Shown here in pieces: positions 2,227 through 20,429 of a DNA stretch of 36,297 nucleotides (its first letter is position 1; every line of letters begins with the position of its first letter). Made by a program: the position numbers and the translations under genes. A model generated the notes under the pieces. It had not been told where the DNA came from. It did no database searches and saw nothing but the letters and a program-made list of their open reading frames with translations. The DNA is from a virus (taxonomy: Duplodnaviria; Caudoviricetes). The DNA lies in IMG/VR virus record IMGVR_UViG_3300044606_000119, positions 1-36,297 of that record; one strand, 5' to 3'.

Positions 2227-2612
2227 CAGAACGGCTCCAGATCGCTCATCTCATCGGGTGGCGGCTGCTCTCCCTGGCCGCTCCCTGTGCTCTCCTTGCG
2301 CGAGAGAAAGCGCACATTACTCGCCACCACTTCCATCTTCTGCTTCTTCTGGCCCTCGTGCTCCCAGCGGCGCTCGCGCAGACGGCCTTCAACCAGAACC
2401 GGCCGGCCTTTGCTGAGATACTGCCCGCACGTCTCTGCCTGCCGGCCGAACACCACCGCATCAATAAAAAGCGTTTCCTCTTTGCTCTCATCTCCCTGCC
2501 TGTAGCGCGAATTCACCGCAATGGCAACGGTCGCAACCGGCGTACCACCCGGCGTATAGCGCACGTCAGGGTCTTTGGTCAGATTGCCGATCAGAATCAC
2601 CCGGTTAAACAT
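2226..2612 (-). CDS. ssb: Single-stranded DNA-binding protein
   Basis: MFNRVILIGNLTKDPDVRYT...VEGRL OB-fold; acidic tail DLEPF. Confidence 0.97.
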   Translation of the reverse strand: MFNRVILIGNLTKDPDVRYTPGGTPVATVAIAVNSRYRQGDESKEETLFIDAVVFGRQAETCGQYLSKGRPVLVEGRLRERRWEHEGQKKQKMEVVASNVRFLSRKESTGSGQGEQPPPDEMSDLEPF

Positions 2613-2859
2613 CCGCCGCACCCCCTTTCTTCAGAGGCTCCGAAACATATAATTTCTTGTCCGGAATCACCTCCACCTTTATGCCGTCCGCTAAATAATC
2701 AGCGATAGCCCGTTCAAATACCGCCACAGCGTCCCATCCCTCAGCTCCGGACTCATCGCGTTTTCTTTCGGCATCAGCAATACTTTCACAGCCTTCCGGT
2801 ATATCGAACTCCACTTCAGGCCAACCCTCAATCTCAGTAAACGTCACGCGCACGCGCAT
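2605..2859 (-). CDS. Hypothetical acidic protein
   Basis: GGGGAG SD before the ATG at 2859; coupled to ssb. Confidence 0.6.
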   Translation of the reverse strand: MRVRVTFTEIEGWPEVEFDIPEGCESIADAERKRDESGAEGWDAVAVFERAIADYLADGIKVEVIPDKKLYVSEPLKKGGAADV

Positions 2860-2860
2860 A

Positions 2861-3001
2861 TCAAAAATTCTCCCCATAAAATTTTTCGATCACCTCCAGA
2901 AACTCACGGCGCGTAAACGCCCCGCCCTCGCCGCTGGCATGCTCAATCCAGACATGCTCCTCATCCCACAAACGAATGCGATACGGCCAGATCACCAACA
3001 T
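2861..3001 (-). CDS. Hypothetical protein (46 aa, MLVIWPYRIRLWDEEH...)
   Basis: GGGAGG SD; fills an operon gap exactly. Confidence 0.55.
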   Translation of the reverse strand: MLVIWPYRIRLWDEEHVWIEHASGEGGAFTRREFLEVIEKFYGENF

Positions 3002-3017
3002 AGCTCATCCTCCCGTG

Positions 3018-3290
3018 TCATACCACCATAGCCGTTTTCAGCCTCATTGCAGCCTTTGCCGCGCGCCGAGCCGGAGCAGCCTGAGCCTCCCTGGAGCGTG
3101 CCCAGCGCCGCACCGATTTACACTCACCCGCGAACTCAGGAAACATCCGCGCATTACGCAGCCCGCGTCTGCATTTTTGGCAGTCCAGATACTCCTGCAC
3201 CGCCGCCTGCTTTTGCCGGAGAATACAGCACCGGAAGCTCAACGTACCCACAAGCGTAGCGCAATAAAACGAATCAGAAAGCAGCTTCAT
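3018..3290 (-). CDS. Hypothetical Cys/Arg-rich protein
   Basis: ATGA coupling with the upstream gene; CxxC present. Confidence 0.6.
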   Translation of the reverse strand: MKLLSDSFYCATLVGTLSFRCCILRQKQAAVQEYLDCQKCRRGLRNARMFPEFAGECKSVRRWARSREAQAAPARRAAKAAMRLKTAMVV

Positions 3291-3565
3291 TGCCGCGCCG
3301 CCTTTCTGATCGGCACATCGGCCCCTGCCCCTGCAATCTCGTAGGCTCTCGGCGAAGCCGTGAGCTTTACCTTTGAGCCGACCAGATAAAACGGCCTCCC
3401 TTCGCGCGCCGCCTCCTCGATCTCCTGCCGCACCTGCTCAAGCGCCATCTTCTGCCCTTTCTCATACGCCACATCCAGCAGCAGCGCACCGGCCAAAAGC
3501 CCCAGCGCCGCACCGCTTACCGCCAGCATCAGCACAACCCACCAGCGTATCTGTATCATCAGCAT
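3287..3565 (-). CDS. Hypothetical membrane protein (one N-terminal TM helix)
   Basis: Hydrophobic WWVVLMLAVSGAALGLLAGALLL; GAGGAGG SD. Confidence 0.7.
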   Translation of the reverse strand: MLMIQIRWWVVLMLAVSGAALGLLAGALLLDVAYEKGQKMALEQVRQEIEEAAREGRPFYLVGSKVKLTASPRAYEIAGAGADVPIRKAARQ

Positions 3566-9806: not shown

Positions 9807-9855
9807 AGAAATAAACAATCTAATAGATTGTATCACTATCACCGCGCAAAGTCCA
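9807..9855 (-). promoter_or_regulatory. Lysis-cassette promoter with overlapping operator
   Basis: TGGACT-17 bp-TACAAT with extended TG; palindrome ACAATCTA-A-TAGATTGT at 9815-9831. Confidence 0.6.
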
Positions 9856-12800
9856 TGATGTCGAGATACTGCGGCCTGACCATGGTCGGTGTCTGCATGA
9901 TCATCCGGATATCCTGCGGTACGACTTTGTTGATCAGCTCGCGTTCAATCATCTGGCTATCAATCACCACGCCATTGTCGGCAGCCTTGGCAATACTGGT
10001 TGCCAGTCGGTCAGGATCACCCTGCATCAGCGCATCGATGATTCCGTCAACCGCCTGTTTGGTCTTGTCCTGATACTGCCTGGTGTAATACTGCCGCACC
10101 TGCTCAACATCGGCGAGCTTGGCTTCCTGCAGCGGCCTGAACCCGGTCCCCTTGGCGATCACATCAGACATCGTTGCATGATACTTCATCCGTTCGCGCC
10201 GGAGCGGATCAGCAACGTCCATGTTGTTCAGGGCCGTCTCGATCGCCGTCAGAATGTTGCCGACTGATGGTGTCAGTGACCGCACCAGTTCAGTCCTGTC
10301 GGCTCCTTTTTCGAGCACCTTTTTTGCCTGCAGCACGGTGCCGATCGTCGGACCGAGCAGGTCTGACGGACGCTTCGGCAGGATATCGCCGGTCCCGGTA
10401 CGCTTTGAAATATCCACACCCACCTGCGAACCCACCCCGTACAGAACGATCTCAGCCACGCGTTTCCGCGCACCGTCAGCGCCAGCCCATTGCATGAGAG
10501 AACCTTTCACTTCCAACAGCGGGTCCTTCCCGGTCAGCCATTCGATAAACTCGGCAAGCCCCTCAACCAGCGGAATTCCCATGACACCGGCAATCAACAG
10601 AACCGGCACCCAGAACTTGATATGCTCGGCCCCTTTCAGTCCCATGATCGCTTCGATCTGCTTAATGGCATACGGCTTGAATTGCCCCAGCAGACGGCCT
10701 GCCGGATTGCGAAAGATGCGGGCTGTATCGGCCACCGAGTAATTGAACTGCGTTTCATCGACCATGCGCCGCGCATACTGCCGCGCCTGCCGCTCAGCAT
10801 ACCCGAGTCCCGTGCGCGCATAGCGGTATGCGGCAAGTGCGGTAACAACCCGGTTCGCCCGCTCCGCTGCCTGAAAGAAGACCATCGAAGCTTGCACTGC
10901 CATGCCGCCCTTGTGTGCCATCGAATACCCGCCGGTATCACCCAGCCCCAGATCATACGGCACGCCGATCCGCCGGAGCACCGCACGGTCAGCGTCAGTC
11001 AGGTGCATGGCACGCTGCAGCGCCCATGCAAAATGCTCAGCCGGCAGCTTGGCGAAGGTATTCACCAGCTGCGTCAGGTTCACCACGCCGGCAGACAGGT
11101 TGAACAGGCCCAGCTTCATCACACCGGTCAAGTGCAGCAGCTTGTTCACCGTCCAGATCGTCGGCCGCTCAGTACGGACAAACGCGCCGAGATACCGCTT
11201 CATCGAGGCATCGATCAAGTCCTCCACCATTCCGGGAGCGCCATTCAGATCATTGATATATTCCTGCACATACCGGGCAATGTTCCTGTCCCGGAGCGCC
11301 TGATCCCCGCGCCCCAGCTCCACCCCGAAATCCTTTTCAAACTTTGGCACAACCCGCGCCTTGAAATCGTCCAGCGCCAGATACCGGGCAGTGGAATCGT
11401 AGTAATGTTTCAGGATATCGTGCAGATCGTCCCGGACAAAGCCGCTCTGCCCCGAGCGTTTCATTGCCGGTCCGAACATGCGCCGTCTTGATTTACGCCG
11501 CGCCACATCGTTCACCAGATCAAACGCCTGATCCCTATTTAGCGTAAATGCGTTTTCCACCTTCTCCACCAGCTTGAAGTAACTGGCATCCTTCAGAATC
11601 GTGCGCTGAATCACCTCATCCGGCAACCGGAACGTCTTCGGCTGTATCCGATACTGTTGCGCCGGATTCAGCGCATTGGCGAAGCTGACCGCTTCGCGCA
11701 GACTCCTGAATGTACCCGCAATACCCGCATTGTTTCCCTGAGCATCCACCTCGTACACATTCCAGTTTTCAAACAGATGCGGCACATGGCCCTCGCGTTT
11801 ACCCATTGCGCCGCCATATGCCTTCCGGTGCGCGCTCAGCATGCGCCATACCTGATTATGGAACGTCCGCCATGTCCCATATGCCTGCTGCACCGGAGCG
11901 CTCACCCCCATCTGCTGCAGCTCCGCCGGGCTGAATTCCTTGCCGAGCGCATCGCCCTCAAATGCGAGCGCAGTCAATTCCTCCATCAGCTCCCGGCGCC
12001 GGATCGGCCCAAATATCTCCTTCAGCTTGTCATGCGCGAGCGCACGCAGACGGTCCTGCTTGAGCACCGCGTTTTTGCCGTGCACCACATAATACCTTGC
12101 CGGTCCCTCGATGCGGCCCGGCGATGCCAGCAGCGACTTGACAAAGCCCAGATCATGCGGCCGGTTCTGCACTGCGACATTGGCAGCGGCCTTCGGATTG
12201 ATCGATCTGAGCAGCCGCACCGCAGCATCATAGAGCTGCGACATCCCCATAAAATCGAGCGTCACCACCGATGATCCGCCCCGGCTCCGCTCCGGCATCA
12301 TCACATCGGTCACCGGCCGGTGCTTCGTCAGTCGTTCAAATACGGCAGGAGCCTCATCGCCGGCCGGCACAAACCAGCGCGTTTCGTACTGCACCCGTTC
12401 GCTGAACAGGCCGGCGCGCTGCAGCTCCGCCGCATACGGATACAGACTTTCGCTGGCGATCAGCTCCACGCGGCGCTCGCCAGCCACACGGGCCCGGCGC
12501 ACCTTCCAGCCGTTAGCCAGCATGATCGTAGCGCCATCGTCAAGAATCATCCGTATGGCATTGTCCGGAGACACCGCTTCTTTCGTGCGGTTTGCCCCGA
12601 GCCGCCGGAGCGTTTCATCGATCACCCGGTTGGGGATTTCCCGGCCGATCAACCTGCGGCCGTCATCCGTCTGCACCCGCACCACGCGGGTCCGTCCTGC
12701 AGACAGCCGATCCCAGATCGGCAGCAACGCGCCGATTATCAGATGCACCCGCTCGCTCCGGTATTGCGGCACATCGGCGGATGCCTTTTCCCAGAGCGCT

Positions 12801-15800
12801 TCGGCATCATGCAGCGCAACCGGCTCCCAGCCGTCCTGCTCCAGACGGTAATCAGGCATAACCTGTTCGCGCCCCTTTTCCGGCCCGACCAGCTTGACCT
12901 CGCCCGTGACGAGTCCATACTCATCCGTTCTGCTGCCATAATCCCGCACCGCCCAGATGCGGCCGCTCTTGCGGTTACGATAGAACCCCCTGAATTTGAC
13001 CATGTTCGCAGCATCAGTGAAGGAAACGAGCTTGTTCTTGTGCTTGACCTCCAGCTGCACATAGCTGGTAACCGCTCCGGTTTCCGGCTGCGTATAAACC
13101 GGCTTTTCCTCGACAATGGACACCGCATCGGCCTTCAGGTTTTCCATGCCGATATCCAGCTCTCCTGTAGCGATCGCCAGCTCCACATTTTTTTCGAGAC
13201 GTTCGTAAAATTCGTTGAATACATGGTTCTGCACATCGATCTGCAGCGACAACAGGCGGTTCAGAAACTGCGGCACATCCGGCAGTTTAGTGCTGTTGAG
13301 ATTACCGTTCCGGTCGATCATGCCGTCCAGTCCCATCATCCGCATGGTGGAGGCCAAATCCAGCCCGGCAATAGCATGGTTATGCAGATCACGGATGAAC
13401 TGCTCAATCGCATCGTTTGCGTATACACTTTCGAGATTGTCCTTTTCGCTGAAGAGTCCCTGCGCCCCCGCGTCGCGCTGTCCGCGCGTCATTGCCCCGA
13501 GCTGATTCAGCCGCCGGGCGATCGACGAGAGAAAGCGCCGCTGCCCCTGCAGATCGGTCGTCACCAGCACATAATGCGGAGCCTGCGCCTGATTCGTCCG
13601 GTGCGTGCGGCCGAACCCCTGCACCGCCTTGTCGGCGCGCCACCCCGGCTGGATCAGATAATGAATGCGCTTGCGCCGGTTCTGGACCGTATTATCAGCG
13701 TGGAAACTGCGGCCGGTACTGCCGGCATCAGAAAAGACAAGGATACGCCGCTTGTCCTGCTGAAACTCTGCGGCTTCCTTTCCTGCGACGTGAGCGCTCC
13801 GGCGCTCCACAACCGTCTTGGTTTTGCCGCTCTCATCGGTCACGCGCACAATACGCTGCGTGCGGCCTGTTACTTCCGCTACCTGCTCGGACCCGAAATA
13901 GCCCAGAATATACTCAAGCGGCCCATCCGGCACCTTGAGACTGCCGAGCTGGTCGAGCAGCCGCTCCCGCATGGCAATCGCCTCAGCGCTCTGCACCGGA
14001 TTGCCATTGGAATCCTCTGCCGGCACAAAGCGCACCTCGCCGTCCGGTCCCATCACTTCCTGATAGACTTGCGTAGGAAATGCGTGTTCCAGGTACTGCA
14101 TCAGCGCCTCGCGCGGAGTCAGGTCGAGGTCCTCAAGATCGCCATCCTCATCCTTCACCTTTGCGTGCTGCCGTTTCTGCGTTGCCTCATTGGTATTGAC
14201 CAGCTGCAGCACGACCGCGTGGCCCGCATCGAGGTTCCGCTGGATATCCGACAGCACCGACGGCATCTGCATGGACGTAATGATCTGATTGAAAAACCGC
14301 TGATGCGCACCCCAGAACTGCGCCAGTGCCGCGCTCTTGGCCTTACTGTTTGAGCCCTGATTGGTCACCTGCAGCGCTTCATGGATGTTCTGCAGCACGA
14401 TCTGCCATGCCTCAGCAAGAGTATCGTAGATCGCCCGTTGCTCCGGTGTGAGCGCATGCTCAAGGCGGCCATAGGTAACATCATCGTAGGACAGTGACCG
14501 GGCATCATACACACCCATCGCCTTCATGTCGCGCGCCACCACTTCCATCGCAGCCAGCCCGCCAGAGGCGATCTTGTCGATAAAGTCCCGCTTGTTTGCA
14601 AATGCAGTGCCTTCACCCCAGAGCCCGAGCCGGTCAGCATACGCCAGATTGCGCACTTCAGTCGCACCGGTAGCGCTCACATAGACTACGCGGGCATTCG
14701 GCACCCGCCGCTGCAGCTCCATGCCTGCCAGCGCCTGCAGCGACGGCTTGGTCGATCCGCGTTTGCCCCGCATCGAGATGGCATTCTGCATATTATGGGC
14801 TTCGTCAAAGACCAGCACCCCGTCGAAATCATCGCCCAGCCATTGAATCAGCTGCTCCAGACGCGACTGCTTCGCGCCTTTTTTCTGCGCAAGCGCAGAG
14901 CCGGTATTGTTCGCTTCCGATCCGGTCGATATGAGCTTGTACGTGGTGAAGATGATGCCGTCCGTGGCCGCAATGTCCATACCGGCCTTGGTTTTGGCCT
15001 GCGGTACCAGCTTCTCAGGATCACCGCCGATATCCTTCCAGTCGCGCACCGCATCCATCACCAGCGCCTGACGCTCGGACACCCAGACCGCTTTTTTTCT
15101 GCCCTGATTGAAATTGTCGAGAATGATGCCGGATATCTCCCGGCCCTTGCCCACGCCGGTACCATCGCCGATAAAATATCCTTTACGCGTTCCGTCCGGC
15201 AGCGTCTGCTGGTGCGCCTGCCCGGCGTAGACAATCGCCTCCAGCTGCGCATCCGAAAACGCACCGCGCTCGATCAGTTTCCGGGAAAGGGTAGGGATAT
15301 AGGCAGGTGTCGGCGGTTCAACCGAAGCCATGGCCGCGCTCTGCACGAGCTTGCCGGGATGGGTCTTGGCTCCGGGTATTCTGACCTTTGCCGGCCGGTA
15401 CGTCTCAAATATGGCATCCGTCAGCTCGCCGGCGGCAGCCTTCGGATGTCCGGCAGCAATCTCAACCGTTATGCCCGGTTCGGGCTCTAGCCCTCCAGCT
15501 GCATCTCCCGGTAATCCGTCAGCAGGCGGTCGATCGACATCACTGCGTGCAGCTGTTCGGTCAACAGGCTCGCCGCTTCCTGCGGGCTGCGCTTGCGGAG
15601 ATCGCCCGCCACCACGTCCGGACCGTCGCCGCTGCGTTCCTCCGGCGGCCCCATCAGCAGGTAATCCAGCACCGCCTGCTGATCCTCCTCCTGCTGCAGC
15701 ACGTACAGGAAGTCCTCCATCATCCGCCGCTGATACCGGAAGTACGGTTCGTAATCCGTCCGCTCCAGATTCCACTGAATCAGCTGCAGCACGTACAGGC

Positions 15801-18800
15801 TGGTCAGTTCTGCTTTTACGCCCAGCGCCTGCAGGTGTTTGAGCGCTTCGCGGTTGAGCGGCAGGTTGTTGAGCTTCTTGATCTGCTGAAATGTCGCTGC
15901 GTTCATTGCGTATCCTCCCGAGCGCCGGAAGTGCATCGAGCACATCCTCATAGCGCTCCTTGATTACAGTATCGCCTGATGCCGGCACCTTGTCAATCAC
16001 CAGAATGCGGTTATCATAGGTAGTGCCGTACTTTTCATATCCCTTGCCGGAGAGCTCGATGATCGCGCGGAACGCATACTGTTTCTCGATCGTCGCAAAC
16101 CAGTCCCGCACCGCCCGGCTGTCACCGAGCTTCCACTTGCCGATCAGCGCCACCAGACGGCCCCCCGGCTCCAGCCGCTGCAACGCCTGATCGAGATGCT
16201 TGATCACATTGGCGCTGTCCCGCTGGCCCGGCACGCGGCCGGCCGTAGCAGAGAAGGGCGGATTCATCAGCACCACGGTCGGCTTGACTTCGGGCGGCAG
16301 GATATTGTGCAGCTGCTCGGCGTTTTCCGTAAAGACCGCAGCATAGCCCTGATCTTTGAGCAGCGCGGCGCGGCGCGGCGAAAGCTCGTTCACATAGACC
16401 TTGTCAACGTCAGCGCTTTTCGCCCACGACGCAAGGCCGCCGACACCGGCGGAGGGTTCCAGCACGGTATCGGAGCGGTTCAGATTCGCCGTCCATGCCA
16501 TTGCATACGCAAGGTCTGGCGGCGTGCTGAACTGCTGAAACTCATCCGTCTCGGCAGTGCGCAGACCGGACTGAGACGGAATCTTCTCCAGAATGACGCT
16601 GCGGATACGGCTTACATGGTATGCCGCTTCGGTAGCCAGATCGGTCGTAACGGCCGCGCGCGGCTGCTCAGCAATGAACTGGTTAATGCCAAGCTCAAGC
16701 GCATCAAACGCATCCTTCGGCGTATATTTGCCTTCGGACTTGCGGCCGCCGTATGCCTCGTTGGCAACGTCCCAGAGCTCTTTCTTGGTGAACGTCTGTC
16801 CCGTGGTCAGCTGGCGCTGCACCCAGTCAGCAATCATCATCGACGGATCGCCCTTGATCTGCTCAGGCTCCGCCGGAGCGGGTTGCTGCTTTTCACCTTC
16901 GGCGATCACTGGCTTTTCGGGTTCGGCTGCCGGACGTTCGGCAGCTTCATAGTACGGGTTATTGTAAGCATTCAATGTTTTGACCGATCCGGAGCTGTCC
17001 CTGATCGTAGCCATGCCATTACGATCCGGATTGATTACCTCATAAACCGTCCCGTCATACACATCGCGCACATAATCGCCCCGCCGGAAGGTGTGCAGGT
17101 TTACACCTATCGGTTCTGGCGCTTCGATCCGAGGGGATGCGTCTGGTGTTACTTCTTGTTGTTCAGGAACGGATGGAAGTTCGGACTTTCGGCCGCTGCG
17201 TGAAGCGCTTCGATTGTTCTTTGGTGAAAGGATTTTTTCGGTGCGGGCTCTGATTTCGTCTGCTGCTGCGGCAAGGTGCTTGCTGGTGATTGGGTCTGTT
17301 CGCTCATAATGACCTCCTTCGTTTTTAGTATACTCCGTATGCATGAGCAAGTCAAACAATGCCTGATCCGCAATGGTGAAATTGCCGCCGCTGCCCGAGA
17401 ACACCAGACGCGGCGAGCTGCCATCAGCATTGTTGTCGCGCAGGAGGAATTCCACATTCGGGTTATCCCGGTACCGGCGGAACATTTCAATAAACGTTGG
17501 CAATGATCGGTTCGCACCCTTGATGGTTGCCTCTTCAGGCACCGGTCGCACATGCTTGCCATCGCGTTTGTAGAGCTCGTCGCGTATGCCGATACGTACC
17601 CGTGCAGTGACAGGATCAACATACATCATCGACAGATTAACCTTGCCGCCTTTGCTCAACACCTTTTCGACCATGCCGTTCAGCAGCGCAAAGTTTGTCC
17701 CCTGCGAATCGTATATGACATGCTTGTCCGTGTCCAGTGCTTTCTGCAACAGTTCCTTGGCATACGCTGATGATTCCTCGTGTGCCTCATTGGTCGGCTC
17801 CAGACGCATGCGTTCCTTGTAATGATCGGAATTCACCTCGACAAACTGGCTCCGCACTGCCGGGTCCAATGCCTCCAATAACGAGCCCTTGCCCGAGCCG
17901 CCCACGCCGAGCGTTGCGATCAGTTCCTGCGGAGTTTCAGCGGTCGCGGTCGGCCGACCGTGAAAATAGTAGGCATCTACCTCCGGCTTGGTCAGCTGTG
18001 CGTTTTTATCCTTGCGGAGCTTTGCGAGCGCCGACCGGTAAAACGGTTCATAATCAACCGTTTCCAGAGGCGCTTGCGGCTTCTCTGCCACGGCAGGCTT
18101 TCCGGGTAGTAGCGTCTGTTCACCCATGGGTTGCGGCGCAGCGGCCGCCGAGGCCTGCGGGCCCGGTTCCGCAGCCGCCGCTTCCGGAGCGGCCTGCTGC
18201 TGAGCGCGCAGGCCGGCCTGATACTGTTGTTTTGCCTGCTCGCCTTCAGCCAGAATAGCGTCCATTTCCCTCGTTGCCGCATCCGCAAACGGATCGAAGT
18301 CCACCGGCTTCAGCGTGACCGGTTTTTCCCCTGCCTGCGGTATGGGTTCGGTCGAAACAGGCGCTTCCTGAGCCTCTGGCGAAGCCGGTTTTTTCGGTAT
18401 CGTCTGTTCACCCATGGGTTGCGGCGCAGCGGCCGCCGAGGCCTGCGGGCCCGGTTCCGCAGCCGTCGCTTCCGGAGCGGCCTGCTCACCCGTGGCGCGC
18501 CGCCGGATCGCCTCCTGCTTGAAGGCAAGGGACATTTTCGCCAGATCAGCCTCTGAGAATCCCCGCTTCAGCATCGCATCGTAATTGGCGGCGAGCTCAT
18601 CAGGCGTAAGCGGCACCAGACCGCGTTCGTTGATCGTAGCCTTCCGGTACCACGTCGAATCCCTCACCGCCTGCATGCCGGCCTGCACCGGCCGCTTGGC
18701 AAACGGCGCACCGACCGCCGCCACCAGCGCAGCTCCCTCGATCGCCGCTTGCATCTGCGGATCGCGCGTCAATTTCTTTGCGCCATCTGCGACAACGGTC

Positions 18801-19333
18801 GCATAGACGGTAAACGGAAACGCCAGCAGTCCCTCGACAGTCTGGCCGTGAAACGTCTCGGCATGCGGTATGCTCTCTGCCCAGAACTGCTTGAGCGCGG
18901 CAGTCGAACCTGCCCAGTCCACCTCGCCGCGCGTCAGCTTCTGGCGCAGCACATCACCGATCCAGCCGGCCGCTCCCGCCGGAATCGCCACCGTTGCACC
19001 GACCAGACCGGCCATCGTCTCGCTGACCGGGTCGTGGGGCAGCTCCTCGCGCTGTCCGCTGGGCAGCGTGGTGGCATCGCCCTGATCGATCAGCTGATCA
19101 CCCTCCAGATACCGGGGCTTGGGTTTGACGTGCGGATTGACTTTTTCGAGCTGGATGCCAGCCTTGTCGAGCACCGATGGCGCGTAGTCAGTCGCAAAGG
19201 CCGCCGCTTCCGGCGGCAGCGCATCGGGATCATTGACCGGCGCAAACGGGTCGTAGTCTACCGGTCTCAGCGTCGGGGCAGCGGCGGCCGGATGAGCAAA
19301 CGGGTCGATGTCTACCGGTACCAGACGCGCCAT
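9839..19333 (-). CDS. Giant polyvalent internal virion protein (~3164 aa): Zeta-like P-loop kinase, N6-adenine MTase, Strawberry-notch SF2 helicase; DarB-like
   Basis: GVGGSGKG/NSDHYK/HEESS (Zeta-like); EPSAGVG and NPPF (MTase); GDGTGVGKG, DEAH, QGFGRTHR (Sno helicase). Located after the ejection proteins. Start MARLVPVD at 19333 follows the upstream stop at 19335. Confidence 0.9.
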   Translation of the reverse strand: MARLVPVDIDPFAHPAAAAPTLRPVDYDPFAPVNDPDALPPEAAAFATDYAPSVLDKAGIQLEKVNPHVKPKPRYLEGDQLIDQGDATTLPSGQREELPHDPVSETMAGLVGATVAIPAGAAGWIGDVLRQKLTRGEVDWAGSTAALKQFWAESIPHAETFHGQTVEGLLAFPFTVYATVVADGAKKLTRDPQMQAAIEGAALVAAVGAPFAKRPVQAGMQAVRDSTWYRKATINERGLVPLTPDELAANYDAMLKRGFSEADLAKMSLAFKQEAIRRRATGEQAAPEATAAEPGPQASAAAAPQPMGEQTIPKKPASPEAQEAPVSTEPIPQAGEKPVTLKPVDFDPFADAATREMDAILAEGEQAKQQYQAGLRAQQQAAPEAAAAEPGPQASAAAAPQPMGEQTLLPGKPAVAEKPQAPLETVDYEPFYRSALAKLRKDKNAQLTKPEVDAYYFHGRPTATAETPQELIATLGVGGSGKGSLLEALDPAVRSQFVEVNSDHYKERMRLEPTNEAHEESSAYAKELLQKALDTDKHVIYDSQGTNFALLNGMVEKVLSKGGKVNLSMMYVDPVTARVRIGIRDELYKRDGKHVRPVPEEATIKGANRSLPTFIEMFRRYRDNPNVEFLLRDNNADGSSPRLVFSGSGGNFTIADQALFDLLMHTEYTKNEGGHYERTDPITSKHLAAAADEIRARTEKILSPKNNRSASRSGRKSELPSVPEQQEVTPDASPRIEAPEPIGVNLHTFRRGDYVRDVYDGTVYEVINPDRNGMATIRDSSGSVKTLNAYNNPYYEAAERPAAEPEKPVIAEGEKQQPAPAEPEQIKGDPSMMIADWVQRQLTTGQTFTKKELWDVANEAYGGRKSEGKYTPKDAFDALELGINQFIAEQPRAAVTTDLATEAAYHVSRIRSVILEKIPSQSGLRTAETDEFQQFSTPPDLAYAMAWTANLNRSDTVLEPSAGVGGLASWAKSADVDKVYVNELSPRRAALLKDQGYAAVFTENAEQLHNILPPEVKPTVVLMNPPFSATAGRVPGQRDSANVIKHLDQALQRLEPGGRLVALIGKWKLGDSRAVRDWFATIEKQYAFRAIIELSGKGYEKYGTTYDNRILVIDKVPASGDTVIKERYEDVLDALPALGRIRNERSDISADQEAQQPAAQPRSAQTPAGAGRKSRTDQPVRAAADSVESGADGLRTVLPVSAADDGGLPVRAAAGGGSAGGAGLPADGAAGGTQRRRSGRGGGRSPQAQPAGSGEPVDRTAARSDVDRPPADGLPGDAAGGLEPEPGITVEIAAGHPKAAAGELTDAIFETYRPAKVRIPGAKTHPGKLVQSAAMASVEPPTPAYIPTLSRKLIERGAFSDAQLEAIVYAGQAHQQTLPDGTRKGYFIGDGTGVGKGREISGIILDNFNQGRKKAVWVSERQALVMDAVRDWKDIGGDPEKLVPQAKTKAGMDIAATDGIIFTTYKLISTGSEANNTGSALAQKKGAKQSRLEQLIQWLGDDFDGVLVFDEAHNMQNAISMRGKRGSTKPSLQALAGMELQRRVPNARVVYVSATGATEVRNLAYADRLGLWGEGTAFANKRDFIDKIASGGLAAMEVVARDMKAMGVYDARSLSYDDVTYGRLEHALTPEQRAIYDTLAEAWQIVLQNIHEALQVTNQGSNSKAKSAALAQFWGAHQRFFNQIITSMQMPSVLSDIQRNLDAGHAVVLQLVNTNEATQKRQHAKVKDEDGDLEDLDLTPREALMQYLEHAFPTQVYQEVMGPDGEVRFVPAEDSNGNPVQSAEAIAMRERLLDQLGSLKVPDGPLEYILGYFGSEQVAEVTGRTQRIVRVTDESGKTKTVVERRSAHVAGKEAAEFQQDKRRILVFSDAGSTGRSFHADNTVQNRRKRIHYLIQPGWRADKAVQGFGRTHRTNQAQAPHYVLVTTDLQGQRRFLSSIARRLNQLGAMTRGQRDAGAQGLFSEKDNLESVYANDAIEQFIRDLHNHAIAGLDLASTMRMMGLDGMIDRNGNLNSTKLPDVPQFLNRLLSLQIDVQNHVFNEFYERLEKNVELAIATGELDIGMENLKADAVSIVEEKPVYTQPETGAVTSYVQLEVKHKNKLVSFTDAANMVKFRGFYRNRKSGRIWAVRDYGSRTDEYGLVTGEVKLVGPEKGREQVMPDYRLEQDGWEPVALHDAEALWEKASADVPQYRSERVHLIIGALLPIWDRLSAGRTRVVRVQTDDGRRLIGREIPNRVIDETLRRLGANRTKEAVSPDNAIRMILDDGATIMLANGWKVRRARVAGERRVELIASESLYPYAAELQRAGLFSERVQYETRWFVPAGDEAPAVFERLTKHRPVTDVMMPERSRGGSSVVTLDFMGMSQLYDAAVRLLRSINPKAAANVAVQNRPHDLGFVKSLLASPGRIEGPARYYVVHGKNAVLKQDRLRALAHDKLKEIFGPIRRRELMEELTALAFEGDALGKEFSPAELQQMGVSAPVQQAYGTWRTFHNQVWRMLSAHRKAYGGAMGKREGHVPHLFENWNVYEVDAQGNNAGIAGTFRSLREAVSFANALNPAQQYRIQPKTFRLPDEVIQRTILKDASYFKLVEKVENAFTLNRDQAFDLVNDVARRKSRRRMFGPAMKRSGQSGFVRDDLHDILKHYYDSTARYLALDDFKARVVPKFEKDFGVELGRGDQALRDRNIARYVQEYINDLNGAPGMVEDLIDASMKRYLGAFVRTERPTIWTVNKLLHLTGVMKLGLFNLSAGVVNLTQLVNTFAKLPAEHFAWALQRAMHLTDADRAVLRRIGVPYDLGLGDTGGYSMAHKGGMAVQASMVFFQAAERANRVVTALAAYRYARTGLGYAERQARQYARRMVDETQFNYSVADTARIFRNPAGRLLGQFKPYAIKQIEAIMGLKGAEHIKFWVPVLLIAGVMGIPLVEGLAEFIEWLTGKDPLLEVKGSLMQWAGADGARKRVAEIVLYGVGSQVGVDISKRTGTGDILPKRPSDLLGPTIGTVLQAKKVLEKGADRTELVRSLTPSVGNILTAIETALNNMDVADPLRRERMKYHATMSDVIAKGTGFRPLQEAKLADVEQVRQYYTRQYQDKTKQAVDGIIDALMQGDPDRLATSIAKAADNGVVIDSQMIERELINKVVPQDIRMIMQTPTMVRPQYLDIMDFAR
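15487..15906 (-). CDS. Nested +1-frame gene (139 aa, helical, acidic) inside the giant protein gene
   Basis: GGGAGG SD 7 nt before the ATG; strongly GC3-biased codons (CTG, CAG, GAG); the giant's frame here is an A/G/R/P-rich linker. Confidence 0.8.
   Translation of the reverse strand: MNAATFQQIKKLNNLPLNREALKHLQALGVKAELTSLYVLQLIQWNLERTDYEPYFRYQRRMMEDFLYVLQQEEDQQAVLDYLLMGPPEERSGDGPDVVAGDLRKRSPQEAASLLTEQLHAVMSIDRLLTDYREMQLEG
17149..17307 (-). CDS. Nested +1-frame small gene (52 aa) directly after the Zeta-like domain
   Basis: AAGGAGGT SD 4 nt before the ATG; MSEQTQSP...KKSFHQRTIEALHAAAESPNFHPFLNNKK. Confidence 0.6.
   Translation of the reverse strand: MSEQTQSPASTLPQQQTKSEPAPKKSFHQRTIEALHAAAESPNFHPFLNNKK
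18113..18486. repeat. 86-bp direct repeat (18113-18198 and 18401-18486) in the giant gene
   Basis: One mismatch; 288 bp apart; encodes QAAPEAxAAEPGPQASAAAAPQPMGEQT twice. Confidence 0.9.
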
Positions 19334-19334
19334 A

Positions 19335-20429
19335 TCACTGCACCACCTGCGACCACCCGCTCCTGCTCCTGGGGTCGCGCACATACCATTTGCCATCGGG
19401 TGCCTTCTGCGCGCCGGGCACCGGCGGGAGCTCCACCGGGGGGGTCTGCCGCGGCACAACCGGCGCAGCAGGCGCAACCGCCGATGCGCCCTGCTTTTCC
19501 TGCAGCTTGTTTTTCGTAAACTGCTTGATACCGTAGGGGTCATTCATGTCGGACTTCTGGCTCTTCCACTGTTCCAGCGTCAGCTCCGGCTGGCCTGTTT
19601 TGCGCCGGTCGGCATTGATCTGGTCGAGTTCTTTCATGTCCGGCGTGCGGCTTTCTTCTTTCGGTCCTGCAGACGGACGCGAAGCGTTCGCGATGCGTAC
19701 CTTGCGCGTCTCCCACTCGGAGCTGATCTCCGCATCCGACATGCCATTGGCTTTCATTGCCTTGTAAAAGAGCGCAAAATCGCTCGACGGTTCAGTGCCT
19801 TTTTGCCAGGCGAGATAATCCTTGAGCGTCATAGCACCTTCCGGGGCCGGCATAAAGGTCGGTTTGCCCTGATCGTCCACCCCGCTTTGCATGAAGAGCT
19901 TGCCGTTCTGGAAATACCCCTGTTTGGTCACCCACCTGCCGTCAGCGTCCTGCTGCACAACGGCCTCAAACGACAGCGCCCCGTTGCCTTTGGCAAAGCC
20001 GCTCAGCGGCGGCAGGCCGGCCTGCACGAGCAGCGGATTGATCCGCTCGATAACCGCCTGACCGCGCTCCCGGTCGGGCAGGGGATTGCCGTTCTGATCG
20101 ACGAGGCTGTCCCAGAGGGCGTTTGCATTGGCAAGGCTTTCCTTCATCGTCTCCTGCTGGAATTTCAGCGCCTCGCGCTTGTCCTTCGCGGCTTCGATCT
20201 CCGCCTTTTTCTGCAGATACGTGTTGATCTGCGCCTGCATGTCATCGTCCCACTGCTCGCTCTTTGCCATGTCAGCGCCCATCATGGCATAGATAAACGG
20301 CTGGGCATAGCCGGCATTTTCAGCGACCTTGCTTGAGATCAGGAGCTTCCGGTCATACGGATTCGACCGGCCGCCATACAGAGACGCAAGCCCCGCGCCG
20401 GGTACTCTTGGTGTTGCGATATCGCTCAT
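19335..20429 (-). CDS. Internal virion / DNA ejection protein (putative)
   Basis: Position between the pilot protein and the giant protein; helical, charged; C-terminal GAQKAPDGKWYV motif. Confidence 0.7.
   Translation of the reverse strand: MSDIATPRVPGAGLASLYGGRSNPYDRKLLISSKVAENAGYAQPFIYAMMGADMAKSEQWDDDMQAQINTYLQKKAEIEAAKDKREALKFQQETMKESLANANALWDSLVDQNGNPLPDRERGQAVIERINPLLVQAGLPPLSGFAKGNGALSFEAVVQQDADGRWVTKQGYFQNGKLFMQSGVDDQGKPTFMPAPEGAMTLKDYLAWQKGTEPSSDFALFYKAMKANGMSDAEISSEWETRKVRIANASRPSAGPKEESRTPDMKELDQINADRRKTGQPELTLEQWKSQKSDMNDPYGIKQFTKNKLQEKQGASAVAPAAPVVPRQTPPVELPPVPGAQKAPDGKWYVRDPRSRSGWSQVVQ

Follow-up and report, generated by a model that had tools for sequence, protein, structure and literature searches.

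A conserved reading frame nested within the methylase-helicase genes of phages and plasmids

A nested reading frame in a giant phage gene

The window analysed here is the whole 36,297-nt stretch of IMG/VR virus record IMGVR_UViG_3300044606_000119 (Duplodnaviria; Caudoviricetes), a temperate podovirus-like genome. It carries a giant polyvalent gene on the minus strand (9839..19543, an open reading frame (ORF) of 3234 codons), in which a methyltransferase and, C-terminal to it, a SWI2/SNF2-related superfamily 2 ATPase share one open frame. A helical domain and the N6-adenine methyltransferase occupy 15899..16855 (minus strand; giant amino acids (aa) 897-1215). The Strawberry-notch ATPase N-lobe (PF13872 AAA_34, E 6.9e-119, Walker A and DEAH intact) and helicase C-lobe (PF13871, E 7.2e-85) lie at 14420..15361 and 13142..13918 on the same strand. 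The S-adenosylmethionine-binding motif EPSAGVG and the motif NPPF were found in the window giant and in nearly all homologues. Wholly within the giant, between the methyltransferase and the helicase, a second ORF was located on the same strand in the +1 frame relative to the giant frame (15487..15906, minus strand; ATG at 15906, TAG ending at 15487). It encodes 139 aa, acidic (net charge -7, isoelectric point (pI) 4.8) and predicted to form an all-alpha domain, and is preceded by a Shine-Dalgarno sequence (SD), GGGAGG (15914..15919, minus strand), which has a 7-nt spacer to the ATG and is encoded within the methyltransferase's last helix. Coordinates, SD, spacer, start codon, length, strand and frame were all exactly as in the initial annotation, which had been made from the sequence alone.

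The GC content at nested codon positions 1, 2 and 3 was 0.70, 0.31 and 0.84. Among 32 blocks of 100 giant codons, codons 1201-1300 formed the sole block with a giant-frame GC content at third positions (GC3) below 0.5 (0.30) and also the sole block without a +1 stop, and only there did the codon signature switch to the +1 frame. These values confirmed the earlier description of GC3-rich nested codons, over which the giant frame reads as a shadow without a stop. Four other +1 ORFs (98-157 codons) inside the giant showed no codon signature and mostly no SD. Four independent public assemblies from four studies contained no indel over 14800-16600, so compensating indel errors were not found, and the five substitutions within the nested ORF across these assemblies closed neither frame. 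No RNA data set was listed as containing this stretch. The +1 frame was open in 0.8% of same-length windows elsewhere in this giant. When the linker residues were fixed and the codons shuffled, it was open in 55% of cases, which speaks against claiming a nested gene from the window alone; the proof therefore rests on the homologues and not on the single ORF. A sigma70-like match about 60 nt before the nested start (TTGACA-17-GATACT, 15968..15996, minus strand) is doubtful: the score was 8.49 against 8.35 expected from the protein-sequence constraint, and conservation of an internal promoter was therefore rejected.

Conservation in homologous loci

Homologous loci were collected by the helicase N-lobe alone, making the sample of 49 viral and 34 genomic loci blind to the nested ORF. 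Among these 83 loci and the window, three were incomplete (L026, L061, L079) and four were without a continuous methylase-helicase frame (L050, L080-L082). The linker exceeded 100 aa in 71 of the 77 continuous loci and measured 41-61 aa in the other six. A nested ORF had to start between offsets -14 and +19 and to have at least 60 codons. By this rule, a +1 ORF from the methylase end to before the helicase was present in all 71 long-linker loci (48 viral, 22 genomic and the window) and in none of the six short-linker loci. The start offset was identical in 65 of the 71 and a core SD was present in 61, thereby establishing the conservation of SD, start and ORF on which the initial annotation depended. 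Its statement that a shorter linker is normal held in part: short linkers exist (41-93 aa, plasmids included), but the long linker with the nested gene was the rule among the phage homologues (48/48).

Eight plasmid loci out of 643 matches were examined. The four gammaproteobacterial loci contained the nested gene, matching its profile, and the four alphaproteobacterial loci had linkers of 81-93 aa and no nested gene. The nested gene accompanies the methylase-helicase module in phages and also in plasmids, where the N-terminal context is a different one. When a profile was built from 29 sequences (window and viral), it recognised 15 of the 22 genomic ORFs on which it was tested. The search in the reverse direction, with the nested profile, brought up a new locus, L098, in which the ORF was again nested in a giant. 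A copy is also present in the cultured strain Methylotuvimicrobium alcaliphilum 20Z (NC_016108.1, 105497-105153, minus strand, inside WP_014133156.1). As had been expected of standard annotation, the nested gene was unlisted in both of the plasmid records that list the giant, according to the incomplete gene tables of PLSDB.

Selection on the two frames

The 71 nested ORFs formed 43 clusters at 50% identity. Elsewhere in the homologous giants, the +1 frame was open in 2% of equal-length windows. Across the 43 clusters, the nested frame contained no stop, compared with about 80 expected if the giant codons were free, and the giant frame contained none, compared with about 294 expected if the nested codons were free. 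A start codon was present in all 47 representatives (19.5 expected from synonymous shuffles), and the SD strength was -9.4 kcal/mol when compared to -6.6 kcal/mol expected, being beyond expectation in 42 of the 47. The giant residue over the nested start varies (N, D, H, R), yet the start is kept; when this residue is Asn, its codon was AAT in 32 of 32 cases, compared with 43% elsewhere. Local mRNA structure was weakest at the nested start.

The ratio of nonsynonymous to synonymous change (pN/pS), calculated over 19 related pairs that share ancestors, are hence non-independent and were aligned on the nested protein, was 0.42 for the nested frame; the giant frame gave 1.23 and the helicase 0.14. 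Purifying selection on the +1 frame as opposed to the giant frame, anticipated at the outset, was thus evident. Pairwise differences at nested codon positions 1, 2 and 3 numbered 292, 245 and 434, falling mostly at third positions. The window's nested protein was similar to 14 of the 42 other clusters (z > 4), and its giant-frame shadow to none. As judged from these sequence comparisons, dual coding is shown to be under selection, which targets the SD and the start codon as well as the nested protein, with the giant frame kept open too. The nested ORF very likely makes a second, overlooked protein.

The two products

AlphaFold predicted the nested protein as a seven-helix domain (predicted local distance difference test (pLDDT) 87.8, predicted template modelling score 0.81). 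The protein is net negative in 42 of the 43 clusters, with a median charge of -10 (range 0 to -18) and a median pI of 4.5. It has neither Cys nor a lipobox, and the prediction is of a soluble helical domain. The giant-frame shadow of the nested gene (15485..15877, minus strand; giant aa 1223-1353) is a Gly/Arg/Ser/Ala-rich linker with pLDDT below 50. This predicted disorder coincides with the nested span (aa 1213-1353) and is flanked on both sides by well-folded predicted domains. With the giant frame open in all 71 loci, these data agreed with the initial idea that the giant reads through the nested gene and uses the shadow as a linker. A separate helicase made by restart was rejected, since a helicase start was present in only 3 of the 43 clusters and is thus not conserved; the giant is therefore very likely a single chain.

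Family and fold searches with the nested protein were blank. No family in Pfam and PHROGs (37 members searched) or in NCBIfam and PADLOC (57 members) was matched by more than two members, and the Pfam TnpV model matched none of the 37 at E 0.05. There was no match among PDB sequences or in the ESM Atlas, none by Foldseek against PDB and BFVD at E 0.001 or better, and no fold match in a wide structure search by VIA (best Z 4.9). The family, Foldseek and VIA searches likewise gave no sequence or fold match to the DNA-mimic inhibitors Ocr, ArdA and ArdB. Such blank searches do not prove the fold to be new. Phmmer against 5.8 billion proteins found a near-copy only. The nested-profile search returned 13 gene-caller products, and all seven of those examined resembled the nested family. 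No longer fused form of the nested protein was found, which is weak evidence.

A free-standing homologue and the origin of the overlap

One homologue was free-standing (G235:C22:18928-19269, minus strand, equivalent to L094:1489-1875; 128 aa, 34 bits, E 1e-7 for the genome), with a stop in the giant-equivalent frame. The nested family can therefore exist outside the overlap. Its gene sits on the border of an apparent integrated element, with an AAA_21 and DUF4276 pair and a host ABC-transporter operon nearby. Its best matches were L078 and L043/L044, within one proteobacterial part of the quick tree, and the free copy may therefore be an escapee rather than an ancestor. No further free-standing copy was found in viral contigs, metagenomes or plasmids (two of these searches were by exact words, with low reach) or in sampled genomes. 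Two weak genome matches, L095 and L100, were rejected as chance, the latter being a DEAD-box helicase C-terminal region.

The overlap may have originated either through the capture of an older gene by the giant or through overprinting. The tree, a quick version only, required five changes of label between presence and absence of the nested gene, at least two of them forced. In the Acidobacteria loci L080 and L081 (about 2600-3300), the module is split: methylase and helicase each have their own gene, and an unrelated ORF of about 180 aa intervenes. Read-through could produce a fusion from such a layout.

Possible role of the nested protein

The nested protein could plausibly be a cognate inhibitor or chaperone of the methylase-helicase. 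We favour this role, tentatively, because phages and plasmids alike keep the gene together with the enzyme module, because its product is acidic and because the products of known embedded pairs interact. Ribosomes would start internally on the giant's mRNA to give a separate nested protein, and enzyme and partner would always be made and inherited together. By binding to the methylase-helicase, the small partner would prevent its activity or maintain its solubility in the producing cell, and, being acidic, might cover a DNA-binding surface, more likely that of the helicase half. Nested divergence correlated with that of the helicase regions (r 0.18-0.30) more than with that of the methylase (0.02-0.12), a weak hint that the helicase half is the contact. 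The giant-frame reading of the nested bases is predicted to serve as a disordered tether between the two enzymes. A giant that reached a new cell without the partner, by virion or conjugation, would be free to track along and methylate incoming DNA. The initial annotation had placed this role in phage assembly. The nested gene also occurs in conjugative-type plasmids, which have no virion, and a role tied to phage assembly therefore cannot be the general one.

A more far-reaching proposal, which we consider possible but doubtful, is a built-in switch, off in the donor and on in the recipient. The methylase-translocases of phages and plasmids would carry their own out-of-frame inhibitor in the interdomain linker, with an undescribed fold and inseparable from the enzyme. 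A free-standing copy apparently resides in at least one integrated element, from where it might act in trans on the enzymes of incoming phages or plasmids.

Several observations weigh against a cognate partner or the evidence for it. Ten short-linker homologues (41-93 aa; the six above and four from plasmids) have the same catalytic motifs and no nested gene. A separate nested copy was not found in any of the four genomes that contain the module without the gene (three short-linker, one split), and the enzyme can therefore do without it. The short-linker homologue L073 (3310-3500) belongs to a nested-bearing clade and keeps an ATG at the conserved place, where the frame is now an unrelated shadow; this looks like a loss of the nested gene. 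Seven of the 22 genomic ORFs are divergent, with no significant homology to the core family, and were matched by position only. The nested family shows 18% mean identity, compared with 55-56% for either enzyme, which is less typical of a conserved-surface partner. Neither the Strawberry-notch helicase nor a methylase-helicase was detected in the assembly of the free-standing homologue. The non-independence of the pN/pS pairs also counts here.

An independent anti-defence factor, acting like the acidic Ocr or ArdA/ArdB on a host restriction or defence enzyme and merely co-expressed with the giant, is the main alternative, though a less likely one. The protein is small and acidic, its divergence is fast as in an arms race, the gene is dispensable in short-linker forms, and the free-standing homologue sits at an integrated element's edge with no partner found in its assembly. 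All other copies found are nevertheless locked in the same linker, including L098, which was found by the nested profile itself. Known inhibitors gave no sequence or fold match, and a late-operon position would allow little early expression unless the protein were packaged.

Less probable again is a helper needed to load the giant into either a capsid or a conjugation channel, or a co-delivered activating subunit. P1 Ulx, of similar size and linkage, aids the localisation of DarB according to the relevant parts of PMC9024508, although the same source places the capsid signal of DarB at its N-terminus. One nested family serves both phages and plasmids, whose delivery machines differ, and no similarity to Ulx was detected through PHROGs, an indirect comparison.

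A programmed frameshift into the +1 frame, giving a short methylase-X fusion instead of a separate protein, appears improbable. The ORF does begin exactly at the methylase end, and in L050 (3008-3384) a frameshift in the overlap breaks both frames, so that the methylase frame continues into the latter half of the nested ORF, reflecting either decay or an assembly error. Selection on the start codon and SD spacing, the minimum of mRNA structure at the start and the existence of a free-standing homologue argue against such a frameshift. That there is no second protein, the open frame being a by-product of a low-complexity linker (as the shuffled window linker might suggest) or of assembly errors, is hardly credible in view of the conservation in 71 of 71 loci, the purifying selection, the fixed start and SD, the profile matches in 15 of 22 held-out loci and the four indel-free assemblies.

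Other features of the giant and its homologues

The window is the whole virus record and has direct terminal repeats, and the gene order is terminase, portal, capsid, adaptor, tail genes, GNAT, giant ORF, endolysin, integrase and repressor. The true start of the giant is likely the ATG at 19333, directly after the stop of the upstream gene, and not 19543. Its late-module position and the DarB precedent (as treated in parts of PMC5512222) suggest that the giant is likely delivered by the virion, ejected with the DNA; the label of ejection protein was deduced from gene position as its sole basis. A four-helix domain was predicted N-terminal to the methyltransferase, at the LPD36 position, by structure prediction without an LPD36 profile comparison. 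The N-terminal third contains a zeta-toxin-like P-loop domain (PF06414, E 1.4e-8; 17510-17908, minus strand) with no obvious antitoxin gene. The N-terminus (about 18000-19333, minus strand) shows four copies of a short L-x-P-V-D-x-D-P-F-like motif, as well as an almost perfect duplication spanning some 26 residues; as a guess, these repeats are possibly capsid-targeting signals.

Among the homologues, L057 (3030-3500) and L084 (4000-4390), both from Methylococcales elements, share an extra stretch of about 100-130 aa in the giant frame, placed after the nested stop and before the helicase. The helicase N-lobe match was about 250 nt longer in L043 and L044 (4001-5158) and in L049 than in other loci, which suggests an insertion inside the ATPase domain.

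Comparison with known systems

Among prokaryotes and their viruses, few nested genes are long, conserved and on the same strand as their host; spanins are the best-known examples. The lambda Rz/Rz1 pair (PMC6139136; see also PMC5295617) resembles the present one in that a phage late gene contains the whole of a second, same-strand gene in another frame and the products cooperate. Rz, from the host gene, is an inner-membrane i-spanin, the embedded Rz1 is a lipoprotein and the host frame is structured, whereas here both products look cytoplasmic, the embedded frame is folded and the host frame is a disordered tether. An embedded spanin was rejected, as the host is a methylase-helicase and the nested protein is predicted to be soluble, without Cys or lipobox. 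The Synechocystis genes slr0489, slr1079 and slr1082 (10.64898/2025.12.20.695498) also hold long intragenic out-of-frame ORFs. In the main text of that report, both frames are translated and the products interact; the product embedded in slr0489 binds the protein of the host frame and, like an antitoxin, alleviates the growth defect due to it. These are spanin-like membrane proteins on one chromosome, unlike the present pair; the main text includes neither helicase nor methylase, and no family relation is claimed.

The window giant agrees with the DarB-like dyad of polyvalent proteins (Iyer et al. 2017, PMC5512222) in its predicted helical N-terminal domain, NPPF adenine methylase and SWI2/SNF2-type ATPase. 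The passages of that work on these dyads name the Strawberry-notch variant, with a Methylomonas example, place the dyads in phages and conjugative elements, as here, and propose that they act on incoming DNA after delivery to a new cell; the same passages, supplements apart, mention no nested gene. DarB of P1 itself has another SNF2 family, unlike the Strawberry-notch ATPase of the window. Ulx of P1, described in the parts of PMC9024508 concerned with DarB as a 17-kDa head-associated protein that aids DarB localisation and whose gene adjoins darB, is likewise small and encoded beside a DarB-type enzyme. It differs in being encoded by a neighbouring gene rather than a nested one and in belonging to the virion, and homology to the nested protein was not detected.

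The arrangement was not found in print in the open-licence literature, supplements not covered. It occurs in phages and elements from several phyla whose enzymes are about 50% identical, and it brings to light a protein family that had escaped annotation, has no recognisable fold and is linked to DarB-like enzymes. The copy in cultured M. alcaliphilum 20Z makes it directly testable. Genes within genes are already known; the host gene, the protein family and the anatomy, a folded nested product over a disordered host-frame tether, did not turn up in the open-licence literature searched. This anatomy shows how an overlap can be tolerated when one frame folds and the other is a disordered linker.

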